Source: a virus
Taxonomy: Duplodnaviria > Heunggongvirae > Uroviricota > Caudoviricetes
Reading direction: 5' to 3' (one strand)
IMG/VR virus record: IMGVR_UViG_3300028048_000107
Span: 12,254-76,253 of that record
DNA length: 64,000 nucleotides
Shown here: piece by piece, positions 9,452 to 40,780 of the stretch
Layout of the letters: each line of letters opens with the position of its first letter
Position numbering within the stretch: position 1 is the stretch's first letter
Made by a program: the position numbers and the translations under genes
Notes under the pieces: generated by a model
What the model saw: the letters and a program-made list of their open reading frames with translations, nothing else
What the model was told of the DNA's origin: nothing
Databases searched by the model: none

Positions 9452-11212
9452 TTATTGCTCCTTATATGTTTTAACCCATTCTGTAATTCCACTACGATAT
9501 ACCTTACAAGCCTTCAAACAATCACCTAAGATATAATCCTCTATATTTTCTACATTATTATCTATAGCTTGTTTATAATATTCTGGATAATCTTGTTGTA
9601 AATTATCATAGGTAAACAACCTATCTCTATAGTACCAATAGTAATTAGGCTCAATTTGCTTATTCTCAATAAATCCTAAATTTGCGTATACATCACCAGA
9701 AAACCAATCATTATCAGAATATGCATATATAGTTATAGGGTGATATTCTTCATAAAAATATTCTAATAAAGGTCTAGCTAATCCATCCACATGTGCATCA
9801 AAATTAATACAATAACATTTTATCTTATAAGAATTATTTTCGGATGCACTAAAAGACATTGCTCCCATTAATTTTTCATTAACATATATACCATAATTTA
9901 TATCACCTATACCTATCCTATATCCAATATAAAATTCCGCACATAAATAGTCCACAACTTCTGATGATATCAATTTTATAGTATAATTATCTATAATCAT
10001 TGTCTTTTGTTTAATAAGCCAGCTAAGATACGATTTTATTTTAACATCATTATATTGCCAATCAACATCAAATATTGATATTAAATGTATATTCTGCTTC
10101 TTCGCCTGTAAAAATTTAAATTGATGATAATTACATTCTTTATCAGAAAAAACATTATTTAATGATGCATGAAATTTACTTCCATTATATTCAATACCTA
10201 ACAATATATTTTTCATATACATATCTATTTCCAGTCCACGATAACCATTATCTAAAATATGTAATCCACGAGATATAGACAATGAATTATCTAAAGTTAA
10301 TAGATAATCTTTAATTTCATTTTCTCCTGATGATCCAGCTTTAGCTATATCAGCACACCCACAAGAATACTGGCCACTATTTAATCCACAAACATCAATA
10401 TCTAATTCATTGCCACAATCACAACGACAATGCCACATAGTATGATACTTCCCCTTTATAGGATATAACATAGTAAGCATACCTTGACGTTCACCAGTTC
10501 TATCTCTATAATTAGGTGGATGTTTTTCATGTGCTTCACACCCACAGGATGTCTGCCCATGCTTTAAATAATAAGCAGCTACATCTAATTCCTTTCCACA
10601 ATCACATTTACAATGCCAATATGACCTACCATATTTAATTAGATGATAAGCTATAGACAGCTTACCGACTTTCTGCCCACTTAAATCCCCAAAATTGTGT
10701 GCATGTCCACGACATTCTCCACAAGTAGCCTTACCATTCTTCTTGAAGTTATATTTAACAGATTTTGCTAACATAATACGCTCATTACCACAATCACATC
10801 TAAATATCCAATACGCACCCTTTTTGCTATCCATATAATCAAACTTAATTGCTACCAATGAGCCAAATCGCTGACCAGTAATATCTGTATATTGTGGTGG
10901 TCTACAATTTGAACAATAATTTGTCTTACCACGCAACAAAGTTGAACCTAATATATCTTTCTCGTTACCGCAATCACACTTACAATGCCAATGATTTGAC
11001 GATGCTTTAAACATAACTAACCAATTACGTATCTTATCTCCAACATGAATACTCCCTTTAGGACATTTACCACAAGTTACCCTATCACCAGCAAGTAATC
11101 TATTTGTAGGATACCACCCTACATTCCCACATTCACATTGACACTGACACTTGGCTCCCTTTTCAGCAATAACTGTCAGCTTACCAAAAGTCTCCCCTAA
11201 CAAATTATTCAC
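9452..11212 (-). CDS. multi-zinc-ribbon repeat protein with Vsr/DUF559-like PD-(D/E)xK nuclease domain (candidate homing-type endonuclease)
   Basis: Five repeats of F/G.L.V...W.C.CDCGNE...L..G...CG.C (CQCQCECGN, HCKCDCGNE, RCDCGNE, HCKCDCGKE, HCRCDCGNE), then LGIEYNGSKFH resembling the Vsr/DUF559 core (IAIFVDGCFWH). Overlaps polA stop by 8 nt. Confidence 0.4.
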   Translation of the reverse strand: MNNLLGETFGKLTVIAEKGAKCQCQCECGNVGWYPTNRLLAGDRVTCGKCPKGSIHVGDKIRNWLVMFKASSNHWHCKCDCGNEKDILGSTLLRGKTNYCSNCRPPQYTDITGQRFGSLVAIKFDYMDSKKGAYWIFRCDCGNERIMLAKSVKYNFKKNGKATCGECRGHAHNFGDLSGQKVGKLSIAYHLIKYGRSYWHCKCDCGKELDVAAYYLKHGQTSCGCEAHEKHPPNYRDRTGERQGMLTMLYPIKGKYHTMWHCRCDCGNELDIDVCGLNSGQYSCGCADIAKAGSSGENEIKDYLLTLDNSLSISRGLHILDNGYRGLEIDMYMKNILLGIEYNGSKFHASLNNVFSDKECNYHQFKFLQAKKQNIHLISIFDVDWQYNDVKIKSYLSWLIKQKTMIIDNYTIKLISSEVVDYLCAEFYIGYRIGIGDINYGIYVNEKLMGAMSFSASENNSYKIKCYCINFDAHVDGLARPLLEYFYEEYHPITIYAYSDNDWFSGDVYANLGFIENKQIEPNYYWYYRDRLFTYDNLQQDYPEYYKQAIDNNVENIEDYILGDCLKACKVYRSGITEWVKTYKEQ

Positions 11213-13511
11213 CTAACTTTACTAAATTATGATATTCATCGAATCTATACTCATTACCATTCCAACTATCAAATACTGCAACATCAAATGCAGCAGGAAC
11301 ACTAAAACCTACACTACTTCCATCAATACAACATTGCTCTGCAATTTGACATACTTCATAAGCATTCTCAATAGGACAAGTAATGACTAATTCATCATGG
11401 ATGGTTAATACTATTTCAGTACCGAGTTCACGAAGTCTTTCATTATTATATATATTAAGCATCATACGCTTGTTACATATACTACCCTGCCCTTGAATAC
11501 GTGCATTCCAACACTCACGCTCTGCTTTGGCTATTTTCCCACCATTACAATAAATGATTATACCCTTCTTCTTAGCTTCAGCAACAACGCAATCCTCTTC
11601 CTTCCTTCCTCGACAATTATTTAATTTAGTAAAATATAAATTTTCATAATATTTACTAGCTTTTAAATCTTCTTTAAGATATGCAGGTAATTTAACTTCA
11701 TATTTAGGCAACAGTGCATCTGGAAGTCTACGTCTATAGCCATCCATTGTTTCCACATAGCCTTTAGTGTGCAAATCAGCATATGTTTGGTCTATAGCCT
11801 TTTTTAATGCAGGAAAAGATGTAAAAAACTTATCCACTAATTCTTGAGCTTTTTCAAAAGATATATTGACATCTTCACCTACAGCACGTACACCCTTTCC
11901 GTACATCAGCCCCAACAGTATGGCTTTCGCGTGTTTACGCCTAGTTTTACCATCTTTATTTGTCGTACCATCCTCATTAAACTCTAAGCAATCTTTATAC
12001 TCTACATCATATATTTGAGATGCTAAATATGAGTATACATCCAAGTTCTTTCTAAATGAATCCAACATATTTTCATCCTTAGCTGTTTCAGCTGCAATAA
12101 GAACTTCTTGTTTTTTTGCATCTAATGATATCATCACTCTCCCTTTACCAGGACTATACATATTACGTACATCATAAAATCCCGATGGGAGCTGCTGGTT
12201 GTTTGGGTCACTACTAGATATACGTCCAGTCCTCGCACCTAAACTATGGAAATTACAATGTACTTTACCATCATATCTAGCCATTTCAGGAAGTTTATCC
12301 ACAAAGCTACCTAAAACCTTATCATAAGCCTTAACATTAAATACTGCTTTAGCAATATTATATATAGGTTTATCTCTATATTTAGGATTATTTACAATCT
12401 CATTTATAACATGCTTGCCTGTACCACGAGGTTCTTTTTCAAATATGACACCACTATGCAATATATCATAAAATAAAATTTGTAATTGAACAGGACTATT
12501 ATAATTAACTGGATACTCTAACAAACTATTCGGATTAACTCTAATGTATTCTAGTATCTTATCTTTAACAATATCTACAGCTTCATTAAATACAACTACA
12601 GCGTCATCATGCAATTTCGCATATTTAATATGCAATTCTTGTGCCTTATTAAAATCTAACCAAATTCCACGCCAACGCATATCAGCAAAAACAGTAATGA
12701 TAGGTATTTCAATATTATGTAAAAGATCTACCACTTTTTCTAAATGACATTCATCGCATTCTGATGTACCTTTAGTTAAATAAGGTTTCTGGAATATATA
12801 TAAATCATAGCACATTCGCGAATCATGGGCAGCGTATTTTGAGCCTACAGATGGCTTTATATTGCAGAATGGTATGCCATCAAATAATTCTGCAAATTTA
12901 TGAATACCTGCTGATCCTTCCATAACATATTTATCATAAAGATATTTGAGTCCATGAGGCTCATTCTCATTTAATAAAACAGATGCTGGTAATGTATCCC
13001 AATATACTTTTACAAAATAACCTAACACAGCCCTCAATACGACTATATCATAATAAGCATTATGAAAAATAAATTTACACCCACCCTTAATCATAATATC
13101 AAACCCAAGCTTAATGGCTTCTTTTGATACTTGATGTGGGAGTAATTGTTCTGTAATATTACTTATATGCCCAATGGGTGCGTATGCTTCTATTTGATTA
13201 GGACTATAGATACATACACCGACTAACCCTTCAACTTGATCACGGAAATTTAAACCTGTACTTTCGGTATCCAGTGCAACATACTCACCTTCAACAGCTT
13301 TCTTGCAGTACTCAATCCATTTTTCATCTGAGTCTAATAAAATACAATGATAGTCTCCTAATGCTTCCTGAACTTGTGCCTCAATACTAGCCAGCTTATT
13401 TATTAGCGTTCCACTTTTTAATTTTATTTTTGGCTGTTGTATTTCTTGTGTTTTCTTAAGTATTGCTTGTGTAGACATTACTTGTCTTTTAGGAATATTA
13501 AATAATGCCAT
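11205..13511 (-). CDS. DNA polymerase, family A, with 3'-5' exonuclease domain
   Basis: Exo I DTESTGL; motif B RRKHAKAILLGLMYGKG; motif C LTIHDELV. Start placed at MALFNIPK (ATG 13511, RBS AAGGAG) rather than the track start at 13550. Confidence 0.85.
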   Translation of the reverse strand: MALFNIPKRQVMSTQAILKKTQEIQQPKIKLKSGTLINKLASIEAQVQEALGDYHCILLDSDEKWIEYCKKAVEGEYVALDTESTGLNFRDQVEGLVGVCIYSPNQIEAYAPIGHISNITEQLLPHQVSKEAIKLGFDIMIKGGCKFIFHNAYYDIVVLRAVLGYFVKVYWDTLPASVLLNENEPHGLKYLYDKYVMEGSAGIHKFAELFDGIPFCNIKPSVGSKYAAHDSRMCYDLYIFQKPYLTKGTSECDECHLEKVVDLLHNIEIPIITVFADMRWRGIWLDFNKAQELHIKYAKLHDDAVVVFNEAVDIVKDKILEYIRVNPNSLLEYPVNYNSPVQLQILFYDILHSGVIFEKEPRGTGKHVINEIVNNPKYRDKPIYNIAKAVFNVKAYDKVLGSFVDKLPEMARYDGKVHCNFHSLGARTGRISSSDPNNQQLPSGFYDVRNMYSPGKGRVMISLDAKKQEVLIAAETAKDENMLDSFRKNLDVYSYLASQIYDVEYKDCLEFNEDGTTNKDGKTRRKHAKAILLGLMYGKGVRAVGEDVNISFEKAQELVDKFFTSFPALKKAIDQTYADLHTKGYVETMDGYRRRLPDALLPKYEVKLPAYLKEDLKASKYYENLYFTKLNNCRGRKEEDCVVAEAKKKGIIIYCNGGKIAKAERECWNARIQGQGSICNKRMMLNIYNNERLRELGTEIVLTIHDELVITCPIENAYEVCQIAEQCCIDGSSVGFSVPAAFDVAVFDSWNGNEYRFDEYHNLVKLGE

Positions 13512-13524
13512 AACTTTTAACTCC

Positions 13525-13635
13525 TTAAAATGTATATAATTTTTTACCACATAGTTTACAAATACAAAGTAGATACAATTTTATTGGACTTTCCTTAACT
13601 ATAAATTCTCTACTTCCACAATTAGGGCATATCAT
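13525..13635 (-). CDS. small zinc-ribbon protein (36 aa), absent from ORF track
   Basis: ATG at 13635 after GGAG; MICPNCGSREFIV...CKLCGKKLYTF; stop just before the polA RBS. Confidence 0.3.
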   Translation of the reverse strand: MICPNCGSREFIVKESPIKLYLLCICKLCGKKLYTF

Positions 13636-24039: not shown

Positions 24040-24522
24040 TCATCCCTCCAAATTTAATAAAACTACTTTATTACTATCTAAAGACGCTTTTACGTCTATT
24101 ATTCTTTGATTTGATGACCCTCTAAAAGCTAAATTTAAATCTCTTAACTCATCTACATATTTACCATCAACTAATACATCTATATAACGCAATATTTCTT
24201 TATCACACAATGTATCATAGGTATATCCAGTATATACCCAAATCTTTTTACTTAATTTTTTACACAAAGATAATACTGTATCATAATTTTCTGGTGTTAA
24301 TGGTTCTCCACCCAATATAGATACTCTATCAACATGTTTATTATTAGCCAATTCAATGAACTTATTTTCAATATCAGGAGTCCATTCCTTACCGCCATTA
24401 AAATCCCAAGTTACTTGATTAAAACAGTTCTTACAATGAAAATGGCATCCTTGTACATATAGTGCTATACCTATACCTATACCATTTGACACATCAAAAT
24501 TTCTTATACTTGCAAAATTCAT
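24040..24522 (-). CDS. nrdG: anaerobic ribonucleotide reductase activating protein (radical SAM)
   Basis: CHFHCKNC (CxxxCxxC) near N-terminus; directly downstream of nrdD. Confidence 0.75.
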   Translation of the reverse strand: MNFASIRNFDVSNGIGIGIALYVQGCHFHCKNCFNQVTWDFNGGKEWTPDIENKFIELANNKHVDRVSILGGEPLTPENYDTVLSLCKKLSKKIWVYTGYTYDTLCDKEILRYIDVLVDGKYVDELRDLNLAFRGSSNQRIIDVKASLDSNKVVLLNLEG

Positions 24523-24854
24523 TACAACGCCTCATGATTATCTAAATGCACATATCTCTCGTTTATTTCTTGTGTTCTTCCTTGGTTAAAGAAGTTAGAA
24601 CTTATATAACCACAAACTCTACGTCTTACAACCATAAGTCTATGATCTGTATTACCACAATTTGGACACTGCCAATCAAGCTTTCCATCTTTATCTATAA
24701 TCTTTATTTCACCTTGATATCCACATACCATACAAGCGTCAGATTTAGTATTTATTTCAGCATACATTATTGTATTATAAATATGCTTAACTATAGACAT
24801 TAGTGCATCCAAATTATTAGTAACGTCACAACTTTCTACATAACTTATTGCCAA
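24522..24854 (-). CDS. nrdD: anaerobic ribonucleoside-triphosphate reductase NrdD, exon 3 (C-terminal Zn ribbon + glycyl radical)
   Basis: YAEINTKSDACMVCGY...CPNCGN zinc ribbon and RVCGY glycyl-radical motif. The 5' boundary is approximate: the first ~10-30 codons of the track ORF may be intron. Confidence 0.7.
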   Translation of the reverse strand: MAISYVESCDVTNNLDALMSIVKHIYNTIMYAEINTKSDACMVCGYQGEIKIIDKDGKLDWQCPNCGNTDHRLMVVRRRVCGYISSNFFNQGRTQEINERYVHLDNHEAL

Positions 24855-25850
24855 AGTCCCTTTGCTTGTAATTTCTTAATTACAATGCTCTCTAGCTCAT
24901 CTTTTGTTTTTTGTGATAAATCTTTTGTAAACTCAAATTTTTTAGTTTGTTCATGTTCATTTGCAAAGTCACCAAAAACTAGTTTTTCTGCAAAATATCG
25001 TTTATACACAGCATCTTTAACTGACTTACAATATCCTAAATGACATCTAGTATTATTTATTCTAATCTCTGGATCATACCTATCACGGTCTGCCCTATAA
25101 GTTACACCTAAGAAACCACTGGTGTTATTACTCATAAATGCCTTATTCCTAACATTTTCTGACTGTTTACATATCCTAAGATTAGATAATCTATTATTTA
25201 AAGGATTGCCATCTATGTGGTCAACAACATATCCAGCTTCTATCTGCTCCTTAGTTATTCCTGTTATTAACCACGCCAAATCAATCTGAGTACCCCTTGC
25301 TGGCAATCCTGTCACAACATGTTTATGAGATAATCTCCATTTATGATATTTTACATCCTCTATAAAGTCAAAATCAATAATAAATTCAGCCACTTTAATA
25401 TTTTTCTGATTATACACATTAAAAATAACTGTTTTACCATCTTCACTTATTACATAGTCATTTAAATCAGCATTAGTTCTTTGAATATCGTCTAAAAATT
25501 CGCCATATTTTAGTAATTGGTGCATATGCTTACTACATAAACAATAACCATATAAACTTATCTTCTTCTTTAAGGGTCTTTTACAAACATCACAATAAAA
25601 CATTCTCCCCTCAACCTCCGACTATATCTTAGCGTAGCAGGAAACCACTGCTTCACACCGTATGCGCTTCAAACTAGTGCCTATCTCTAGTCTTACAATT
25701 AGTCTGTACACCTTCAATTAAGCTTGGCACGGTATTTCCAAATAGTGTCTACCGTTAGCACTCTTACGAGCACACCCTTTGGCAAGGTTCACATACTTTA
25801 AGGTGGCTTTTCGGCTATGTAGATTGTCCAAACCACCTGGACTTAGTGCT
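24830..25850 (-). ncRNA. group I self-splicing intron 2 in nrdD (core 5' of the HEG, sunY-like layout); boundaries approximate
   Basis: Minus strand carries R-like CAGACUAA (~25698..25709) and S element AAGAUAUAGUCGG (~25620..25632); P-like CCUUGCCAAAGGGUG near 25790; GC-rich structured sequence unlike flanking AT-rich DNA. Confidence 0.5.
24845..25603 (-). CDS. HNH homing endonuclease (HNH plus AP2-like domain), intron-encoded
   Basis: VVDHIDGNPLNNRLSNLR HNH motif; N-terminal CDVC...C Zn; lies between nrdD exons 2 and 3, immediately 3' of the group I R/S elements; RBS GGAGG. Confidence 0.7.
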   Translation of the reverse strand: MFYCDVCKRPLKKKISLYGYCLCSKHMHQLLKYGEFLDDIQRTNADLNDYVISEDGKTVIFNVYNQKNIKVAEFIIDFDFIEDVKYHKWRLSHKHVVTGLPARGTQIDLAWLITGITKEQIEAGYVVDHIDGNPLNNRLSNLRICKQSENVRNKAFMSNNTSGFLGVTYRADRDRYDPEIRINNTRCHLGYCKSVKDAVYKRYFAEKLVFGDFANEHEQTKKFEFTKDLSQKTKDELESIVIKKLQAKGLWQ

Positions 25851-26770
25851 TGATATTCAGCTTCTTTAGTAAGTTTAGTAAACGGATCTACTTCTTCCTT
25901 TACCCAATAATGATAACTATTAGTTATATAATCTCTATCAGTAATTCCTTCTATAATACCAAATCTTCTTTGCAATGCTTTTGCAAATTTATGCACACCT
26001 GTCTCCATAGGAGTTCCATATAAACTATATGAAATATTTTCAGCTTTACGCCACTCTGCACACTTAGCATTGAGGGCCTTCATAACTTCTAATCCAAATT
26101 GTTGTCCCTTGTCCCCATCCATATGAGAACAACCTGTCATATATTTAACACATTCAAATAAACCTGCATACCCAAGACTAGCAGTAGCTATATTATTATA
26201 AAACAGTTTATCAATCTTTTCATTATGTCCTAATCTTGCTAATGCCCCATCCATCCACATAATAGGTGCTTCATCAGCAATAGTATTACTCAAGTGTGCT
26301 ATGCGCTCTTTATGTGCTTTATGGCACAATTCTGCTCTTTCATCAAACAATTCCCAAAATAAATCATAGTCCCCTTTCGATGATAACGCTATATCCACAA
26401 GATTTAATGTAATTACGCCACAATTAAATCTTCCATAATATTTATGATTTATTGGATCTGGTGTAAGAAAACTTCTGCAACCCATGCATGGGTACACATC
26501 ACCTTTAAGTTCCCTCATCTTCTTTGCTGAAATGTAATCAGGAACCATCCTTTTAGCAGTACATTTAACAGCTAATTTAGTCAAATAGTAGTATTCACTA
26601 TCTTCATATATATTATTTTCATCCAGTGTATATAATAATTTGGGGAAAGCTGGTGTAATCCACTGTCCTGCCCTATTTTTCATTCCCTGTATACGCTGAT
26701 TTAAAAATTCTTCAATAAGCATTGCAGTTTCTTTTATATATTCTGGATCTTCATTTAAGTACATAAACAC
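25718..26770 (-). CDS. nrdD: NrdD exon 2 (central catalytic part); last ~30-45 codons of this ORF are probably intron read-through
   Basis: Lies between the N-terminal ATP-cone exon and the C-terminal glycyl-radical exon on the same strand; first M of the track ORF is not the real exon start. Confidence 0.55.
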   Translation of the reverse strand: MFMYLNEDPEYIKETAMLIEEFLNQRIQGMKNRAGQWITPAFPKLLYTLDENNIYEDSEYYYLTKLAVKCTAKRMVPDYISAKKMRELKGDVYPCMGCRSFLTPDPINHKYYGRFNCGVITLNLVDIALSSKGDYDLFWELFDERAELCHKAHKERIAHLSNTIADEAPIMWMDGALARLGHNEKIDKLFYNNIATASLGYAGLFECVKYMTGCSHMDGDKGQQFGLEVMKALNAKCAEWRKAENISYSLYGTPMETGVHKFAKALQRRFGIIEGITDRDYITNSYHYWVKEEVDPFTKLTKEAEYQALSPGGLDNLHSRKATLKYVNLAKGCARKSANGRHYLEIPCQA

Positions 26771-27842
26771 AGATACAAATGGAGATTGCGGAATCCATTA
26801 TTCCGTAGACTATATCTTTATCCAAAATTGGATAGATAGCACTTCCACACATTAAAGTGTGTACGAACAAAAGTTCTAGTCGTTGCACCTTCAGCATAAA
26901 CTGCTAGGCACAGGATTATCAAACAATTAATCTATATTACTTTCCAATGTATCCCATCACAAATACATTCACCATTATGTCTTTTTAAAGCATTATATAA
27001 TTTATAGTTGCTATTGCCTACAGCGTCAACAACTGAATTATACACAATATTATTAGTAACATCTAATAGCTTTATTCTTGTGGGATTTTTACTAACGTGG
27101 TCACTCTTTATCTTTTTTATTTCATCTATATTAGCAGGTATTCCATTATCTATAATATTACCGTTATCATTTAAATATCTAAAAGAATGTTTTTTATGTG
27201 TATACCTTGTGCCTCTACAAACAGCACAAACCTTGGAATGAGAAAACTGGGGATATCTTTTACACAAATCTACAACGCAAGAAAAAATTTCTCCTGTTTC
27301 TAGAATAATTACAGGTTTACTAGATGGATTAGCATCTCCAAACTTACCATACATATGGTTAAGCTCTCCCTTTTGAGCATTACCAATAGAATCTTTAACA
27401 CTCTGGGTTAAAAATGGTTTTGCTCCTCCTCCCTTAAGATTATACCCATGACTAGGATCTGTAGTCATGAAAAATCTTATCCAAAATGATTCTTTTAAAT
27501 CAAGCTCCTCATGAGAACTAGCATAATCTATAATTTTCCACTCAAAATTCTCACTACCATACTTTTTTAATGCACGTTTAAATAACGTACAACCGTGATG
27601 TTTGTAATTTACGCTCTCAATATGTTGCCTTTTTCTATCTGCTAATTTTTGTACTGTTTGACCAATATATCTTTTACCATTGACCACGTTAATCGCTTCA
27701 TATATAATCATTATTTGATTCCCCTGTCAGCATGGTTGTTAATTATCATTTACTATAATTACTAAACGTCAACCATACACCTTAAATAATAAGTTCACTA
27801 TCTTTTCACTATAACATTACTATTATAGGCAGCCAATACTTA
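26771..27842 (-). ncRNA. group I self-splicing intron 1 in nrdD (HEG inserted 5' of the P7 core); boundaries approximate
   Basis: Minus strand has R element GUGCAACGACUAGAA (26877..26888) and S element AAGAUAUAGUCUACGG (26807..26818) about 70 nt apart, followed by a P9-like hairpin GGAAUAAUGGAUUCC. Confidence 0.55.
26932..27711 (-). CDS. GIY-YIG homing endonuclease (I-TevI-like), intron-encoded
   Basis: IYEAINVVNGKRYIGQT (GIY-YIG), R..H, ESFWI; inside intron 1 with the R/S core downstream. Confidence 0.75.
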   Translation of the reverse strand: MIIYEAINVVNGKRYIGQTVQKLADRKRQHIESVNYKHHGCTLFKRALKKYGSENFEWKIIDYASSHEELDLKESFWIRFFMTTDPSHGYNLKGGGAKPFLTQSVKDSIGNAQKGELNHMYGKFGDANPSSKPVIILETGEIFSCVVDLCKRYPQFSHSKVCAVCRGTRYTHKKHSFRYLNDNGNIIDNGIPANIDEIKKIKSDHVSKNPTRIKLLDVTNNIVYNSVVDAVGNSNYKLYNALKRHNGECICDGIHWKVI

Positions 27843-28694
27843 ACCGTTAGAGTTACACATACTATTTATTTGATAGTTAAATGTTTGCACAGAATCAGCT
27901 ATTTCTTTTTTTAAGTCTTCTAATGCAAACTTCTTTACTAAACTATCATCTAGATCACGATTTTTATACTTATTTACATAATATTCATAGCTACTTCTTA
28001 CAAATGGAGCTAAATGAGTTAATGTAATAGTTGTACCACCATATTGACTTGAAGTAACTGATGTAATTACTTGTGTTGCTAATGTGGTTGCAGTTAATAT
28101 TCTATGTGGTTTATCTATATGAACTCCATTTATGTTTGTTCCATTCTGAAGCATATCTTCTAAATTAATTAGACAACAATTTGTTAAATGCTGAGCTGCA
28201 TAATCAAGATCATGTATCTTTATTATAGCTTCTTTATCTGCCTGTATAACATCAGGAGAAAAAATATGTTTTTTAGCCAAGTGTTTACTTACAATACCTG
28301 CCATATAATCACGCTTAGTTGTAACAACATCAGCGTCTTTATTTGAATTTTCTGTAGACCAATATTCATTTTGTCCAGAAAGCATAGAGGATAACTGAGA
28401 TTCTAACTCAGTATCCATATTACGTTGAAACTCCCTAATAGCCCTATACCCCTCATAAGCTCTAGCTACATCTTTTTTACCTCTAGCAATTAATTGATTA
28501 AATACTTCAATTTCTATGTCTGAAATATTAACTTCTTTGACATTCTTATGCAAATCTTTTATATATTCAGAAATATGTAATGCTACTTTTTTAGAGACAT
28601 TCCCACAAAATTTCATTGATTTCAGTATTGCCTTGTATATCTTTTCTGCATTAAAATCCTGTAAGCTCCCATCTCTTTTTCTAACCTTTACCAC
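27843..28694 (-). CDS. nrdD: NrdD exon 1 (ATP cone + N-terminal domain)
   Basis: VKVRKRDGSLQDFNAEKIYKAI ATP-cone start; IHDLD; likely GTG start at 28694 after RBS GAGGGTGAG; exon ends ...CNSNG near 27843. Confidence 0.7.
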
Positions 28695-28716
28695 ATAACT
28701 CACCCTCACTTTTTAC

Positions 28717-28769: not shown

Positions 28770-30140
28770 CACCACCTATAGAGGCGGGGAATTCCTGATT
28801 CATTGACTAATGCGCCAAAACCTTGGTTTCAGTGTCTTACATAATCTCCAAAGGCGTAGAGGTTATATTTAACCTCAGTTCCCATATGACCTATGGTACT
28901 ATTTGTTTCTCATGCTATATCTTTTGCTTTTGCTAAGATATTTATTGCCGCATTTCTATCTCTATCATGATGTGCTCCACATACAGGACATGTCCAATCT
29001 CGCACAAATAGATTCTTTACTAGTGGATTTTTATAGCCACATTCATGACAAGTTTGACTTGATGGGTAGAATGTAGGTATTTTTACTACTACACCACCAT
29101 GTTCTTTTGCTTTATACTCTAATTTAATAAAGAACTTACCCCATGCTACATCACTTATTGCTTTCGCTAACTTGTGATTCTTTAACATGCCTTTAATATT
29201 TAGCTTCTCAATAGCTATAAAAGCATTATCTTCTGCTAAGTGATAAGTTAATTTATGCTGAAAATCATCTCGTACATTCTTTATTTTTTCATAAATACGA
29301 GCAACTTTTATCCTTTGCTTTTCATATTGTGCTGAACCCTTTTTCTTACGAGCTAATTTTCTTTGAGCACGAGCCAATTTCTTTGCAAATTTAGCAAGTA
29401 TCTTTGGATTCTTTACTACATTACCATTAGTATCTGCATAAAAATCTTTTACTCCTACATCAATACCTATTTCATGTCCATTATTAGAAAGCAATTCTAT
29501 TTCATATTTTACACAAATAGACACATAATATTTATTTGATGCTGTACGAGTAACTGTTGCGCTTACAATTTTTCCTACCAATTCACGAGAAAGCTTGATT
29601 TTCACTCTCCCAATCTTTGGTAATTGAATTGTATTGCCTACAAGTTTAATATTACTACCTACACACTGACTTCTATATTTCTGACAATGTGCATGTTTAG
29701 ATTTAAATTTAGGATACTTAGATATCTTTTTAAAGAATCTATCATATGCTACTTGTAAATCTCGAAGGGAATTTTGAAGTGCCGTACTATCAACTTCATT
29801 AAGCCAGCTATACTCATCATACTTTTTAAGGTCTGTAAGCATAGCATTTGTAGCACTATAATTAACACTTTTATGATTGAATTTCCATTCATCTCTACGA
29901 ATTTGCAAGAAATGATTATAAATAAATCGCTTACAACCAAGAGTTTTATTTATCAATACCCTTTGCTCTTTTGTAGGATAAATTCTATATTTCATACCAC
30001 GAGTAATTTCTACTACCAAAATTCTCACCTCCTAATTATATTGTAACATATGTAAGAAGTAATTGCAAGTAATTCATCTCCCCCCTTCGCTTCGCTTAGA
30101 GGATGGAGGCTTCTTGCCACATTCTGTTAAATAAATTGTC
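28770..30140 (-). mobile_element. TnpB-only IS200/IS605-family element #1 (no tnpA); ends approximate
   Basis: ~200-nt GC-richer structured region 3' of tnpB (28770..28910) with end-hairpin motif ACCTatagAGGcGGGG (28774..28789), related to the hairpins flanking the other two tnpB genes. Confidence 0.35.
28910..30028 (-). CDS. tnpB: TnpB (IS200/IS605 OrfB family RuvC-like nuclease with zinc finger)
   Basis: MKYRIYPTKEQRVLINKTLGCKRFIYN N-terminus; C-terminal CHECGYKNP...CPVCGAHHDRDRNAAINIL ZF + RuvC-III; probable TTG/ATG start a few codons inside the track ORF. Confidence 0.8.
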   Translation of the reverse strand: MRILVVEITRGMKYRIYPTKEQRVLINKTLGCKRFIYNHFLQIRRDEWKFNHKSVNYSATNAMLTDLKKYDEYSWLNEVDSTALQNSLRDLQVAYDRFFKKISKYPKFKSKHAHCQKYRSQCVGSNIKLVGNTIQLPKIGRVKIKLSRELVGKIVSATVTRTASNKYYVSICVKYEIELLSNNGHEIGIDVGVKDFYADTNGNVVKNPKILAKFAKKLARAQRKLARKKKGSAQYEKQRIKVARIYEKIKNVRDDFQHKLTYHLAEDNAFIAIEKLNIKGMLKNHKLAKAISDVAWGKFFIKLEYKAKEHGGVVVKIPTFYPSSQTCHECGYKNPLVKNLFVRDWTCPVCGAHHDRDRNAAINILAKAKDIA

Positions 30141-36071: not shown

Positions 36072-37511
36072 TTAGGACAAGTTCCTTGCCCTTTTTGAAC
36101 GCAAATTAGCTAAAGAAAACTTACTTTGCTTTTCCTCAAATAATTTAGGTTCAATCATAGATATTCCAATATCTCTAATATTCAAAGATGCATTATAATC
36201 TCTATATAGATGTTTACCACAACCGCCACAATCATACTCCTTAATAGCTAAATTTTTAGTCAATGCGTTTATATAACCGCACTCATGGCATTTTTGTGTA
36301 GATTTTTCAAACCTATTTATCTTTACAAAAATCATGCCTTTATGTTTTAGTTTATACTCTAACATTAACCTAAACATACCAAATCCATTGTCTAACAAGT
36401 TTTTAGCTATTTTAAGTGTTTGCGACATTGCTCTTAAATCAATATCTTCTACAGAAACTAGTGCAAATTGCTTTGCTATCCTAAAGGAAAGTACATGTAG
36501 TGCATTCTTCCTTATATTAGCTATCTTCCTATGAAGTTTTTGAATTCTTTTAAGCAACTTTAGGTACGCATTGCTTTGTTTTTCCTTCTTCGCAAGTTTT
36601 TTCTGTAATGCTTTAAGCTTACATTCATTTTTGCGATATGTCTTTTGAAAGGATGCTAATATATTATCTAATAAGGTTTTATCCTTACTGCTAGGAACAC
36701 ATCCACCTTGTTGTGCATAATCTAATCCAAGACATAATTCTTTATGTTCATTCAAATAATCTTTGACTTTACATAAAGTTTCTTTATCATGTTTTAATGT
36801 AACATACTCTTTAGTATATATTACAGTTAAAGACACAGTATATCTATCTTGACCTATTCGCTTAATAACTGCTTTGGTTATTCTGTAATTTTCTGGTAGG
36901 TCACGATGATACCTTAGTTTTATTGGATTCTTTAACTTAGGTATTACAAGCGTCATATACCTACTACTTTCTCCAAGATACTCTTCTAACCTTACTGTAC
37001 CTTTTTGATTATTGGTAGTAAAAGATTGTTCAGAAAAGAATTTAGCTGAAAATTTAGGCATACCTTTTAAATCTCTAAAAGTAAGCTCTTTGCCTATAGT
37101 CTTAACTTGTTTAAGAGCTTTCTTTTTATATTGATTACCTTTAGACACAAATTCATCATTATATTTCTTAATAGAGTTTACAAAATCTAGCCTTACCGCT
37201 GATAAAGCTAATGAATCTACTGCTTTCATATAAGAAAACTTTTCTTTTATAAATTTAACTGTAGGTAAATTCTTTACAAATTCTTTAGGAATATAGCCAC
37301 GCTTAAAATTTATACTTTCAAGATAATCATATAACTGAGCAACAAATATATTATGTAATTGACGTTTACAACCGCAATTTTTATGGATATACTGACATTG
37401 CTCAGTAGTTGGGTATATTTCATAGACATACCCAGCAGTAAACTCTTTTTCTAATTTTTCCAAGAATCCCAATCTTAAAAACTTGTCTTGTAGATTATGC
37501 ACAACATTCAC
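36072..37511 (-). CDS. tnpB: TnpB (IS200/IS605 OrfB family), 479 aa
   Basis: N-terminal YVYEIYPTTEQCQYIHKNCGCKRQLHN; C-terminal KCHECGYINA...CGGCGKHLYRDYNASLNI ZF + RuvC-III; own promoter TTGACA-N17-TAAAAT at 37525..37553 and RBS AAAGGAGG. Confidence 0.75.
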   Translation of the reverse strand: MNVVHNLQDKFLRLGFLEKLEKEFTAGYVYEIYPTTEQCQYIHKNCGCKRQLHNIFVAQLYDYLESINFKRGYIPKEFVKNLPTVKFIKEKFSYMKAVDSLALSAVRLDFVNSIKKYNDEFVSKGNQYKKKALKQVKTIGKELTFRDLKGMPKFSAKFFSEQSFTTNNQKGTVRLEEYLGESSRYMTLVIPKLKNPIKLRYHRDLPENYRITKAVIKRIGQDRYTVSLTVIYTKEYVTLKHDKETLCKVKDYLNEHKELCLGLDYAQQGGCVPSSKDKTLLDNILASFQKTYRKNECKLKALQKKLAKKEKQSNAYLKLLKRIQKLHRKIANIRKNALHVLSFRIAKQFALVSVEDIDLRAMSQTLKIAKNLLDNGFGMFRLMLEYKLKHKGMIFVKINRFEKSTQKCHECGYINALTKNLAIKEYDCGGCGKHLYRDYNASLNIRDIGISMIEPKLFEEKQSKFSLANLRSKRARNLS

Positions 37512-37524
37512 CTCCTTTATAGAT

Positions 37525-37553
37525 ATTTTAACATATCTTTAGGGTTTTGTCAA
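37525..37553 (-). promoter_or_regulatory. sigma-A-type promoter for tnpB #2 (TTGACA-N17-TAAAAT)
   Basis: Plus-strand tgtcaa 37548..37553 and atttta 37525..37530; RBS and ATG follow. Confidence 0.5.
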
Positions 37554-37702
37554 TCCTCACCTCTATAGGTAGGGGATTGACTTGCTGATAAATTTACTTC
37601 ATCAACTTCTTCTATAATTTTAATAATATCTTCTTTTGACATTTCTTCCAACCCTTAACGACAGTTTCTTTCCATTCTTGTGTCAACATAATTATCTCAT
37701 TT

Positions 37703-37893: not shown

Positions 37894-38127
37894 AATTCCT
37901 TTACCTAATTTTTCTAATAATTTATTAAGATATTCTACTAAGTTACTTCTCAAAAAGTATAACCCGCCGATCATTGCAGTCATAGAAGCCCATTTACCTA
38001 AATCTTCCAATGAACCTAATGGGTCTAGTTTACTTCTTTCCTTTACATACCAATGTATAGATGCTGTTAACTGTTGTCCTAAAGTATATGTTAGGTTACT
38101 TGCTTGTTGTTGTACTACCTGAAACTC
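37894..38127 (-). CDS. 3' exon of IStron-interrupted gene (C-terminal ~77 codons, no start codon of its own)
   Basis: Minus-strand frame open for 77 codons from the element's right end (GEFQVVQQQASNLTYTLGQQ...LYFLRSNLVEYLNKLLEKLGKGI*); such a stop-free stretch is improbable by chance in AT-rich DNA. Confidence 0.4.
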
Positions 38128-38289
38128 CCCATAGCTGAAGCTAGAGGGTTCTTAGGTACTTGATAGCCTTTTCTTACTCTCGAAAGATACAAGTATCAAC
38201 TATCTTCCCTAAAACTTTTACAGACAAGTGCTCCACTGAACGCATTAGCGTCTGCATAAGGCCCGTTTCAAGACCTTTAATATTTTATG
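38127..38289 (-). ncRNA. candidate omega-RNA scaffold / IStron 3' region (tnpB stop to right-end hairpin)
   Basis: ~160-nt GC-richer segment (GAAACGGGCCUUAUGCAGACGCUAAUGCGUUCAGUGGAGCAC...) between tnpB stop and the right-end hairpin; by analogy to TnpB systems the guide would be the ~16-20 nt just beyond 38126. Confidence 0.3.
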
Positions 38290-39777
38290 TTAAATTCCTA
38301 CACTACTTAATAACTTTTTACCACTATCCTTAATAGAAACTAATCTTTCTATTTCTTTATTATGTAACTCTAAAAAGTTATTATATCTTTCATTACACTT
38401 TTCTAAATTAAAACTTGATAAATCTTCATTAACATTCATTATAAGAAATGCTGAATATAAATCACGTTGGACTTTGTTTCCTTCTATATTGTTCCAACGC
38501 TCATTTCGCTCCTTCTTCTTATATTCTCCAGTAACATGATTATATTGAGATGCTTTCGCTTCTCTTGTATTTATCTTTATCAACTCTTTCCCAAAATAAT
38601 GAAGCTTCCTATCTAAAATCTCTAAAAACATTGCTGGTGCTCTGTTTGCTATGGATTTTCCATAACGCTTCCTACTTAGATTCTTACCCTTCTTACTCTT
38701 CTTGGCTTCTTTTGCTTTCTTTGCTAAAGCCTTAAAATCCATATCTTCTACATAAAAGGTATCTCCTAAAGTAAGTAGATGGTTTGTAAGAAGTTCATGC
38801 TGATATTTTCTCAATACTCTCTGTTTTCTGTAAAGCTCTTTAAGCTTAAAGAGTATCTTCATATAATGATTACTTCTTACCCAATATTTTGCACCTTTCT
38901 TACAAGTTCCGTTAGCATTAAAATTATTTGGGTTAGTTGCTCTACGACTACGATCAAGCTTTCTTTGAAGTAAAAGTCTTTCTCTTTCATACCCTTGGGC
39001 TTTATCTGCAAGCTCTTTTAATGACACTTCAGTTTCAGAAGAATAGGCTATTGTAGATGTACCAATATCTATTCCTACATCCCCTTTACCTAACTTCTGA
39101 GTGAATTTACCATCAGATTTTCTTCTCTTTGCTGGACGTAAACCTTTAAATACTATCTGTAAATAATATTTACGTTTTCCTCTTATATATTTTCTGATTA
39201 CTCTGCAATAAGCAATTTCCATTGCTAAAGCTTCCACTTCATAAGAATTTTTCTCATCTATAATTACAGGAAAATTCAACCCTCCCCAAACACACATATT
39301 TTTATCTGACTTATACATAATAGCATTTTTATTATTCTTTCCTTCTAAAGACTCTACACTACCAAATTTCTTGAAGTGTATTTCTTCACCATCCTTATAA
39401 AAATACCTTACGTATGCGTCCCATACTCTATTAGCTATTGCTATAGCTATATGTGTGTTTACATGATTCTTAAAATGATATCTTAAAGATGTCATCATTC
39501 CTTGTAATCCATGTTTACTTAATCCAGTCTTTTCTCGTAAATCGTTGATTTGCCTATAAATTTCTTTATCATGTTCTGATTTATCATGCTTTAATTCTTT
39601 CATTAGGCTTCGATACTGCTTAGTCTTTTCAAGTTCTCGTAAAACTTTTAAACTCTTGTTTACCAAGGCATTATAAAGCTTTCGACCAGCTTCTATCCGC
39701 TTGTCGATAATATCTTCTTGCCACGATTCTGTTTTTAGTTTAAGTGTTAGTACAAATCTTGGTTCGTCTTTTGCCAT
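38290..39777 (-). CDS. tnpB: TnpB-like RuvC nuclease lacking the zinc finger (divergent IS200/IS605 OrfB)
   Basis: RuvC-I GIDIGTSTIA, RuvC-II YVEDMDF, RuvC-III QRDLYSAFLIMN; N-terminus RFVLTLKLKTESWQEDIIDKR...RKLYNAL parallels TnpB RLYPTxEQ...RxVYN; no Cys between RuvC-II and III. Promoter TTGACA-N17-TATAAT at 39800..39828, RBS AAGGAGG. Confidence 0.7.
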   Translation of the reverse strand: MAKDEPRFVLTLKLKTESWQEDIIDKRIEAGRKLYNALVNKSLKVLRELEKTKQYRSLMKELKHDKSEHDKEIYRQINDLREKTGLSKHGLQGMMTSLRYHFKNHVNTHIAIAIANRVWDAYVRYFYKDGEEIHFKKFGSVESLEGKNNKNAIMYKSDKNMCVWGGLNFPVIIDEKNSYEVEALAMEIAYCRVIRKYIRGKRKYYLQIVFKGLRPAKRRKSDGKFTQKLGKGDVGIDIGTSTIAYSSETEVSLKELADKAQGYERERLLLQRKLDRSRRATNPNNFNANGTCKKGAKYWVRSNHYMKILFKLKELYRKQRVLRKYQHELLTNHLLTLGDTFYVEDMDFKALAKKAKEAKKSKKGKNLSRKRYGKSIANRAPAMFLEILDRKLHYFGKELIKINTREAKASQYNHVTGEYKKKERNERWNNIEGNKVQRDLYSAFLIMNVNEDLSSFNLEKCNERYNNFLELHNKEIERLVSIKDSGKKLLSSVGI

Positions 39778-39799
39778 ATATCTCAGCCTCCTTGACTAT

Positions 39800-39828
39800 A
39801 TTATAGACCATAAAGGTCAAAATGTCAA
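39800..39828 (-). promoter_or_regulatory. sigma-A-type promoter for tnpB #3 inside the IStron
   Basis: tgtcaa 39823..39828; tataat (RC) ~39800..39805; 17-nt spacer. Confidence 0.5.
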
Positions 39829-39839
39829 GGGAAATTTTC

Positions 39840-40305
39840 ATAAAATATTAATTTTTTTAGAACCCTCTAACTTCGCGATTTGAGAGTTTGTCGTTCCCAC
39901 GGAAACGCTACCTTCCATGACGTTCTCTTATGAACTGCTTGACATTTCTGCCAAGCACAGACTATATCTTATCCATGTTACAAAATTAAATTTGTAATTT
40001 AGGTCTTATTTACTTCCCTAGTGCTTACTAGGTACTGCCCTCGTGAGGCATAGTCGTTGATCCTTTTTATTGGATGCTGATTGTCTATTTTCTACGATTA
40101 ATGTTTAGGATTTAACCTTGCATTATCCAAATCATTGTTTTTACTTTCATAACCTATTTATAGGTTGATTTGGCTTTAAGAGTTTCCAGCTATTCTAATA
40201 CTGCACTGCTTAACTTTCTCTTAAGTTAAGACTACATACAAGTTTCCCTATATGCTGATTGATTGTATTATGCTCCTATCCCCATAGCTGAAGCTAGGGG
40301 ATTGC
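39840..40305 (-). ncRNA. group I intron ribozyme core of the IStron (5' part of element)
   Basis: Minus strand: R element GAUCAACGACUAUGCC (plus 40051..40060 tagtcgttga) and S element GGAUAAGAUAUAGUCUG (plus 39959..39970 agactatatctt) ~80 nt apart; nearly identical to the R/S of nrdD intron 1; ~480 nt without any ORF. Confidence 0.55.
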
Positions 40306-40780
40306 GGAGCATGTTTAATCGGTCATGTACTCCATTTTTTAATGCTGTATTTATTACATCTTTTTGTGCATCTATATTTTTCTCTAATTCTTTATACCAT
40401 TGTTTTGCCTCATCTATATTTTTTGGCTCTACAAATGCATAAGAATTTACAATAGCTTTTGTAGTATCTGCTATTACTGTATTTACAGTTTCTTTTACTA
40501 TCTCTTTTGGTTTTTCTTTATTTTCTGTTGATAGCATTACTACTTCTTTACTTATTATTTGATCTATATCCACTACTTTTAATACAAAAGATTGTGTAGA
40601 AAAATCTTTCTTAGTTATAGTTACTGGTAATACTCCTACTTCTATTCCGCTTATTGAAGTATTTCCTAAATTATCAGTTGTTCTTTCTATTAAACCTTTT
40701 CCTTCTAAATTAAATACTACTGAAGCTTCTTTAACTGGCTCTCCTGTTAAATCTTTTGTTTGTATTTTAATTTGTGCCAT
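40306..40780 (-). CDS. 5' exon of IStron-interrupted gene
   Basis: Track ORF 40268..40780 reads through the element's left hairpin and stops 12 codons later; the real gene probably continues in 37894..38127 after splicing. Confidence 0.4.

Follow-up and report, generated by a model that had tools for sequence, protein, structure and literature searches.

We characterized a divided class III ribonucleotide reductase (RNR) gene, nrdD, in a 64,000-nucleotide stretch of Caudoviricetes phage DNA (IMG/VR record IMGVR_UViG_3300028048_000107, positions 12,254 to 76,253; the whole stretch is termed the window). The source is a metagenome assembly (a 65-kb contig in ENA ERZ27252073, also in Logan SRR8442993), not a described phage, and there is no close cultured relative, since megablast of the locus against cultured phages gave as its sole match an 87-nt stretch of nrdG in Yersinia phages. 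Three minus-strand open reading frames (ORFs), recognized as parts of nrdD in a first-pass annotation made from the letters alone, cover consecutive parts of the Pfam NRDD profile (PF13597; positions 1–154, 156–469 and 472–562). The two intervening segments, 1,054 and 980 nt long (1.0–1.1 kb in that annotation), each hold a different predicted endonuclease gene. In order of transcription, the features are as follows (R1 is a covariance model described below).

27843..28694, minus strand: nrdD exon 1, 284 codons (Pfam ATP-cone and N-terminal NRDD, 1–154; alignment to 9d3x and 1h78)

26789..27842, minus strand: intron 1, predicted group I, 1,054 nt (protein alignment, uninterrupted homologue DNA, helix table, R1 match)

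26932..27711, minus strand: predicted GIY-YIG homing endonuclease gene, 259 aa (Pfam PF01541; PHROG 314 and 7168)

25832..26788, minus strand: nrdD exon 2, 319 codons (Pfam NRDD 156–469; gapless alignment to T4 and 9d3x)

24852..25831, minus strand: intron 2, predicted group I, 980 nt (R1 match, same-site pair counts, blastn to other phage introns)

24845..25603, minus strand: predicted HNH (HNH_3) homing endonuclease gene, 252 aa (Pfam PF13392; PHROG 99)

24522..24851, minus strand: nrdD exon 3, 109 codons plus stop (Pfam NRDD 472–562 and Gly_radical)

24040..24522, minus strand: nrdG, the radical SAM activase (Pfam Fer4_12 and Radical_SAM), its start overlapping the nrdD stop

Exon 1 begins with a GTG at 28694, preceded by GAGGGTGAG, and ends with the codons AAC GGU; the ENA gene call is likewise 284 aa, and the first-pass limits for this piece were exact. 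Exon 2 runs from CAA UCU CCA UUU (QSPF) to CCA GGU GGU (PGG). Exon 3 begins AISYVE and holds a Zn-ribbon (CxxC...CxxC) and the glycyl-radical motif RVCGY. Both of these latter pieces had been found at first pass, with limits (~25850..26770 and 24522..~24830) that were ORF-based approximations; the placement of nrdG next to nrdD was right, and it follows directly (24522..24040). We set the exon junctions by protein alignment and reading frames together with the group I rules that exons end in U and introns in G. Junction 1 then reads ...AAC GGU↓UAAGUA...AUUCCG↓CAA UCU CCA and junction 2 reads ...CCA GGU GGU↓UUGGAC...GACUUUG↓GCA AUA AGU (arrows mark splice sites).

Ligation of the exons restores the reading frame, both introns ending in G (AUUCCG↓CAA and CUUUG↓GCA), and gives a 712-aa NrdD. 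Its alignment, a check proposed at first pass, is gapless across both junctions (NSNG↓QSPF and PGG↓AISYVE) against PDB 9d3x (E = 4e-122) and against T4 NrdD (1h78, E = 2e-110), with NSNGQSPFV corresponding to T4 SSNGQTPFV at junction 1 and SPGGAISYVE to ATGGHISYVE at junction 2. The joined protein keeps the NCC and MGCRSF cysteine motifs, the Zn-ribbon and RVCGY. Uninterrupted NrdD homologues number in the thousands, the best of them being 70% identical along 100% of the length, and their DNA is continuous at both junctions and close to the joined sequence (for example, ...AATGGT↓CAAAGTCCATTTGT and ...GGTGGT↓GCAATTAGCTATGT). The ligated sequences are ...UCUAACGGU-CAAUCUCCA... for exons 1 and 2 (RNA AACGGU-CAAUCU) and ...CCAGGUGGU-GCAAUAAGU... 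for exons 2 and 3 (RNA GGUGGU-GCAAUA); intron-less sequences of the L001/L002 type have ACAAATGGT↓CAAAGTCCATT and CCCGGTGGT↓GCAATTAGCTATG.

The conserved core of both inserts follows the canonical group I order P3-P4-P5-P6-P7-P3'-P8-P7'. In full, the elements are P1, P2 (intron 1 only), a P3 5' strand ending GUG, AA, hairpin A, GU, hairpin B, U(A/G)A, P4, P5, P4', P6, the P7 5' strand, one or two hairpins, GAAG, P3' and P8, after which the 3' end of the core comprises the AAGAUAUAGUC element with P7', then P9 or P9.0, then ωG. P1, P3, P4, P6, P7, P8 and ωG are all present, and relatives covary at the same sites. Group IA2 introns (T4 and Twort type) are recognized by P7.1 and P7.2 between P7 and P3' and by a J3/4 of ~3 nt joining P3 to P4; in both introns here, two additional hairpins separate P3 from the UAA/UGA of J3/4. 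Hairpins A and B are an insertion into J3/4, because members without them (L112 and L149) join P3-AAA-P4 directly; in the literature on P3.1/P3.2 we found nothing relevant. The two introns are members of a single ribozyme subfamily (P3, two hairpins, P4), and the main difference between them is the position of the endonuclease gene. The first-pass view of two differently organized introns holds for that position, not for the ribozyme.

A search of IMG/VR yielded more than 119 loci with the P4'-P6-P7 motif. The covariance model R1 was made with MAFFT and RNAalifold from 24 non-redundant IMG/VR introns and contains no window sequence. Unaided, RNAalifold predicts P3, the two hairpins, P4, P6 and P6a from this 24-intron alignment, 16 of the 29 pairs having changes on both sides. 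R1 matches the intron 2 core over its full length (25799..25614; 131.7 bits, E = 2.4e-26); in intron 1 its match covers the 3' half (26979..26802; 50.9 bits, E = 2.3e-9). Elsewhere it gives 146.8 bits to the recA intron of Bacillus phage 0305phi8-36, 120–131 bits to three ORF-less introns of the L156 nrdD, 76 bits to the BM31 dnaB insertion, 69.6 bits to the Jayan DNA polymerase insertion and 27.5 bits (E = 4e-4) to T4 sunY. These matches, with the covariation among relatives, uphold the earlier call of two group I introns. A further, weak R1 match at 13145..13035 (minus strand, with AUGAUAUAGUCG in it; 15 bits, E = 0.085) falls within the PolA ORF, which is intact, and is probably due to chance.

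Intron 1 has its 5' splice site at GGU↓UAAGUA and its 3' splice site at ...AUUCCG↓CAAUCU, with ωG at 26789. The internal guide sequence (IGS) UUGGCUG (27836..27830) forms a P1 of CGGU/GCUG with a U·G at the 5' splice site; P3 pairs GAUAGUG (27802..27796) with UGCUAUC (26841..26835), and two hairpins (GAAC/GUUC and CACAC/GUGUG) lie between P7 and P3'. In a script-checked helix table, 14 of 14 helices are complementary and in canonical order. They are kept with different sequences in four other introns at this position (site 1), those of Fnu1, L118, L156 and L201; all five retain P1, P2, P3, P4, P7, P8 and P9. The IGS tracks the local 5' exon across site-1 introns (CGGU/GCUG, UGGU/GCCA, AACGGU/GCCGUU and GAGU/GCUC). 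The R element (26889..26877) and S element (26818..26808), like those of intron 2 (R 25712..25699 and S 25630..25619, with the P7 strands within both), are where the first pass had put them. Its description of the non-coding sequence as GC-richer fits the intron 2 core (45%) and the 3' part of intron 1 (36%) against the window average of 31%, but not the 5' part of intron 1 (29%).

The intron 1 ORF sits in loop L5, between the P5 strands AUCAA/UUGAU and so upstream of P7, as had been claimed; its AGGGGA, resembling a ribosome-binding site (RBS), overlaps P4. It matches PF01541 (28.5 bits, cut-off 22.6), PHROG 314 'homing endonuclease' (E = 2.6e-29) and PHROG 7168, and the IIY...YIG, Arg, Glu and Asn motifs are visible in it. 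By these signatures the product is a predicted GIY-YIG homing endonuclease encoded inside the intron.

We also observed that the P9 loop of intron 1, AUGGA, is complementary to exon 2 positions +6..+10 (UCCAU; window 26797..26779), and that in L156 a GGAGA immediately 5' of the 3' splice site pairs with exon positions +4..+8 (UCUCC). Such pairing, present in two sequences only, may be a P10 substitute at site 1.

Intron 2 is bounded by GGUGGU↓UUGGAC and ...GACUUUG↓GCAAUAAG, with ωG at 24852. Its ribozyme core comes first (25831..25604) and the HNH gene lies at the 3' end, the layout reported at first pass. The IGS GCCACC is at 25807..25802, and P3 pairs 25796..25790 with 25666..25660. An alternative P3, AGUGCU/GGCACU, was ruled out by a covarying GUAA hairpin; in relatives P3 is xxxxGUG/CGCxxxx. 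Across seven introns at this position (site 2), placed in a structure-blind MAFFT alignment, 86.6% of cells are paired as against 31–46% with slid partners, and 20 pairs are changed on both sides, a number reached in 0 of 500 shuffles (slid controls, 4–10). P1 (GGUGGU/GCCACC, with a U·G at the splice site) is 100% paired in the seven relatives, and P1 and P7 are invariant. By blastn, phages 0305phi8-36, BM31, Jayan and PT1-1 have stretches 75–92% identical to the core, and intron 2 is thereby tied to introns that interrupt recA, dnaB and DNA polymerase genes in cultured phages.

The ORF of intron 2 matches PF13392 (43.5 bits, cut-off 24.8) and PHROG 99 (E = 2.1e-31), and its product is a predicted HNH_3 homing endonuclease encoded inside the intron. 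It runs across the 3' splice site, its final 7 nt (GCAAUAA, TAA stop included) being exon 3; the same end, ...LWQ and stop over UUUG↓GCAAUAA, is identical in L102, L120, L122, L124 and L175. The excised intron would therefore carry a non-stop ORF, and we infer that normally terminated HNH protein would come from unspliced RNA only. Close to this overlap, intron 2 positions 10–18 (CUACAUAGC, 25822..25814) pair with exon 3 positions +8..+16 (GUUAUGUAG, 24844..24836) in a P10-like helix of 9 base pairs, which is 98% paired and has four of nine pairs changed on both sides; in every relative with both ends available, the P1 loop is complementary over 8–9 base pairs to exon 3 sequence around +5..+18. 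In addition, P9.0 can form between GGAG, which follows P7', and CUUU, which precedes ωG; most relatives keep three of its four pairs. The stop codon in exon 3 and the P10-like pairing displaced to +8..+16 are comparatively new, if minor, features.

Among uncultivated phages in IMG/VR, nrdD is interrupted at at least eight positions besides the T4 site (query residues ~160–175, 219/220, 284/285, 386/387, 405/406, 544/545, 603/604 and 684/685), with up to three insertions per gene; the intron-bearing loci are L031, L050–L055, L067, L069, L102, L118/L180, L120, L122, L124, L153, L156, L190 and L201, and some of the introns are ORF-less (240–330 nt). Site 1 is occupied in Fnu1, L118/L180, L156 and L201; site 2 in L102, L118/L180, L120, L122, L124, L153, L156 and L175; and in many relatives the sites are uninterrupted. 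L118/L180 and L156 combine insertions at the two sites with one at 386/387. The closest NrdD among intron-bearing loci, that of L102 (64–79% identity), has three introns, none at site 1. Like the window, L102, L118/L180, L156, L122 and L124 have nrdD divided into three or four pieces by group I introns, with or without endonucleases. Site-2 introns share with intron 2 the IGS, core, HNH gene and LWQ-stop overlap, whereas the multi-intron relatives use additional or different sites (219/220, 386/387, 405/406, 544/545 and 684/685); a GIY-YIG gene in L5 at site 1 combined with HNH at site 2 is the window's own arrangement. At site 1 the endonuclease varies, being GIY-YIG in L5 in the window and L118, GIY-YIG in hairpin B in Fnu1, HNH in P8 in L201 and absent from L156, which is the usual independent history of intron and endonuclease.

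Among cultured phages, Fusobacterium phage Fnu1 has in its nrdD (gp060, gp059 GIY-YIG and gp058) an intron at exactly site 1 (...↓CAA, the Gln of Q[ST]PF). The 5' end of that intron is homologous to that of intron 1 (U(G/A)AG.UGUUUGGCUC). The GIY-YIG genes of the two introns are 39% identical, that of Fnu1 being placed in hairpin B (the second between P3 and P4) and not in L5. The Fnu1 intron is 1.45 kb, with large extra insertions, and there is no second intron; the record lists two separate NrdD coding sequences and annotates no intron. For the HNH gene, the closest relative in cultured phages is in Enterocloster phage CB473P3 (34% identity), also within nrdD but at another site, after RxCG of the glycyl-radical motif. 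In CB473P3 we also noticed a skipping-rope RNA (RF02924, 68 bits; L083 5784..5863) ~1 kb downstream of the intron-containing nrdD and unrelated to the present finding. The 0305phi8-36 recA/UvsX, BM31 dnaB and Jayan DNA polymerase insertions are of the same subfamily (P3-AA-hairpin-GU-hairpin-UAA-P4) and share a conserved AGAUURGCA loop before GAAG-P3'; their host genes and endonucleases differ, and only that of 0305phi8-36 is annotated as an intron.

T4 nrdD (sunY), with its group IA2 intron and I-TevII, has the same host gene, and intron 2 had been likened to it. The likeness holds for layout (a ~235-nt ribozyme core first, a 3' endonuclease ORF and a remote 3' splice site) and the P7 sequences are alike (AACGACUA...AGAUAUAGUCU); it fails for insertion site and endonuclease type. 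The T4 junction (GAGU↓...↓AUGAAG) splits a Tyr codon 31 nt (10 codons) upstream of site 1, and T4 has nothing at site 2. The sunY intron also lacks hairpins between P3 and P4, unlike the introns here, and the I-TevII ORF ends 21 nt before the splice site where the HNH ORF crosses it. We found no homology of either endonuclease to I-TevII or MobB/C/D; I-TevII is GIY-YIG-like, not HNH, yet unrelated to either ORF. More broadly, published surveys name nrdD as the phage RNR gene most often split (PMC3653736), and phage RNR genes with several introns, nrdD among them, are on record (PMC3653736, PMC12880540). RNR genes of Twort, SPβ and Brochothrix A9 hold several self-splicing introns at conserved motifs, some with endonucleases, and the nrdE of Staphylococcus phage Twort has two group I introns, one with the HNH enzyme I-TwoI (PMC3653736). 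Those genes are class Ib (nrdE and nrdF), with introns and sites different from those here. In Jug phages nrdD comes in up to four fragments, splicing being confirmed by metatranscriptome reads (PMC12880540).

Taken together, we put a probability of about 0.9 on the view that two mobile group I introns, both from one ribozyme subfamily, interrupt the nrdD of this metagenomic phage, a reading drawn from sequence comparison. It is carried by exon continuity, ribozyme family membership with covariation, the endonuclease domains, and the occupied and empty sites in relatives. Several observations weigh against it. The Rfam Intron_gpI scan (RF00028) of the minus strand, which the first-pass annotation had put forward as a check, was negative: there is no match in the window at the gathering threshold (50 bits, reached by neither intron), none at E ≤ 10 on 5.2 kb and none on the isolated 261-nt core. 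The site-1 helix table was assembled by hand, and the R1 match to intron 1 is meaningful solely in the 3' half, because the ORF interrupts the ribozyme. P1 of intron 1 has just four exon base pairs, two of them G·U; intron 2 has one hairpin, not two, between P7 and P3', and its P5 and P6a are weak. A canonical P10 at exon positions +1..+6 was found in neither intron.

Controls put the Rfam result in proportion. The same model finds the T4 nrdD (sunY) intron at 105 bits and the hairpin-less L112 at 62 bits, gives 32 bits to the annotated recA intron of 0305phi8-36 and 32.4 bits (E = 7.7e-5) to the ORF-less site-1 intron of L156, and has no match for the hairpin-less L149. It returns nothing (E > 0.1) for the gene-splitting insertions of BM31 dnaB, Jayan DNA polymerase, PT1-1, Fnu1 nrdD and CB473P3 nrdD, and misses most relatives with two extra hairpins. 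Since the controls show limited sensitivity for this ribozyme subfamily, we do not take the miss as evidence against the introns; it is likely due to the two extra hairpins between P3 and P4.

The alternative that survives best, though improbable, accepts genuine group I introns but has one or both splice inefficiently or depend on a host or phage factor, with nrdD decaying or conditionally expressed. The weak P1 of intron 1, the weak P5 and P6a of intron 2, the silence of the curated Rfam model and the metagenomic origin of the sequence would all suit it. This alternative sits poorly, however, with three intact, in-frame exons that conserve the catalytic motifs, with full-length endonuclease ORFs and every core helix present, and with a near-identical architecture recurring in many independent contigs. 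Much less probable again is a gene in pieces, split by free-standing endonuclease insertions into separately translated fragments that assemble after translation, as in Aeh1 nrdA/mobE. ORF finders do list fragment starts (GTG at 26770 and TTG at 24854), and Fnu1 is annotated with two NrdD coding sequences; but those starts lack an RBS and would delete the conserved QSPFVS, neither an RBS nor a start stands at the junctions of exons 2 and 3, the fragment limits coincide with the U↓...G↓ splice-site rules, and both inserts contain a complete group I core with significant R1 matches and covariation. Inteins, of which RNR genes are frequent hosts (PMC3653736), and group II introns are refuted by the sequence, because the inserts cannot be translated through (TAA directly follows exon 1, and both open with an in-frame stop and hold many more), the Pfam search of the inserts found no reverse transcriptase or intein splicing domain, and the group I R and S elements and P7 helix are present.

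With two group I introns as the preferred reading, what we infer of splicing, of endonuclease activity and target, of homing and of any translational regulation would run as follows. The transcribed introns would fold into a group I core, with the U·G of P1 at the 5' splice site, the P3/P8 and P4/P6 domains, the guanosine-binding helix P7 and ωG. Two transesterifications would excise each intron and ligate the exons, giving an mRNA for the 712-aa class III RNR, co-expressed with nrdG. In intron 2 the remote 3' splice site is probably brought to the core by P9.0 and by the 9-base-pair P10-like pairing of P1 loop and exon 3. The endonucleases presumably cut intron-less nrdD alleles of co-infecting phages, repair then copying the intron in. 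Repeated homing, as suggested at first pass, is plausible, and it fits the presence of one intron or the other, both or none among relatives. We give roughly even odds to a broader proposition: that the site-2 lineage unusually couples HNH expression to splicing, through a TAA borrowed from exon 3 and a displaced P10-like helix that leaves the stop-bearing 7 nt unpaired, and that both introns belong to a large two-hairpin subfamily, spread over at least eight nrdD sites, that Rfam largely misses.

The phage is unusually rich in selfish elements, with an IStron candidate, two TnpB-only elements and an HNH gene beside PolA:

40320..38118, minus strand: probable IStron, ~2.2 kb (group I-like core, TnpB-like gene, flanking hairpins, TCAG end)

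37511..36072, minus strand: TnpB gene, 479 aa (OrfB_IS605 and Cas12f-TNB; element 37580..36072, hairpin 37579..37553)

30028..28910, minus strand: TnpB gene, 372 aa (OrfB_IS605 and Cas12f-TNB; element 30028..28770, hairpin ~28795..28770)

9452..11212, minus strand: putative large free-standing homing endonuclease, 586 aa (HNH/homing-endonuclease PHROGs 374, 559 and 3339)

The first of these is most likely an IStron, judged by its parts. In its candidate core (40270..39940) the R and S elements are AUCAACGACUA and AAGAUAUAGUCU, there are P7.1 and P7.2 hairpins, and P9 is capped by a GAAA loop; R1 gives the core 15.6 bits (E = 0.06) and Rfam nothing. A TTGACA/TATAAT promoter follows the core, then a 495-aa TnpB-like gene (39777..38290, minus strand; PHROG 506, E = 2e-42, no Pfam match). 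An IS200/605-type hairpin flanks the element as 25-nt direct copies (40303..40279 and 38150..38126), and the gene that the element splits has a joined product of 230 aa, 95% identical to uninterrupted 228-aa proteins. Relative to the empty site in L209 (ACATGAT↓GTAGTTCAA, that is, ACATGAT↓GTAGT), the 5' side has four extra nucleotides (CCGA). The right end is ...TTTCAG↓GTAGTACAA, and a TCAG right end is a group A IStron signature (PMC4227781).

The 479-aa and 372-aa TnpB elements have no tnpA and no ribozyme, and each carries a similar imperfect-palindrome hairpin; L209 is without the 479-aa one. Only ~200 nt separate the end of the 372-aa copy from the nrdD start downstream, which puts exon 1 immediately after the right end of an insertion sequence element. 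The 586-aa ORF lies beside an essential replication gene, that for the family A DNA polymerase (13550..11205), with whose 3' end it shares 8 nt. A 170-aa ORF had no tblastn match in cultured phages.

The two-intron nrdD is a further example of a well-documented phenomenon and leaves the understanding of introns and of RNR unchanged; it adds one more case of RNR genes as a refuge for selfish introns. For annotation, what would be listed as three NrdD fragments and two 'free-standing' endonucleases becomes one spliced nrdD with two mobile introns, a correction that extends to Fnu1 gp058 and gp060 and to many IMG/VR contigs. The overlap of endonuclease ORF and 3' splice site offers a compact system for the coordination of a remote 3' splice site with an overlapping endonuclease ORF. 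On the side of method, an abundant phage subfamily escapes the standard Rfam group I model but is recovered by a simple family model; if this is true, the group I intron content of phage metagenomes may be underestimated.

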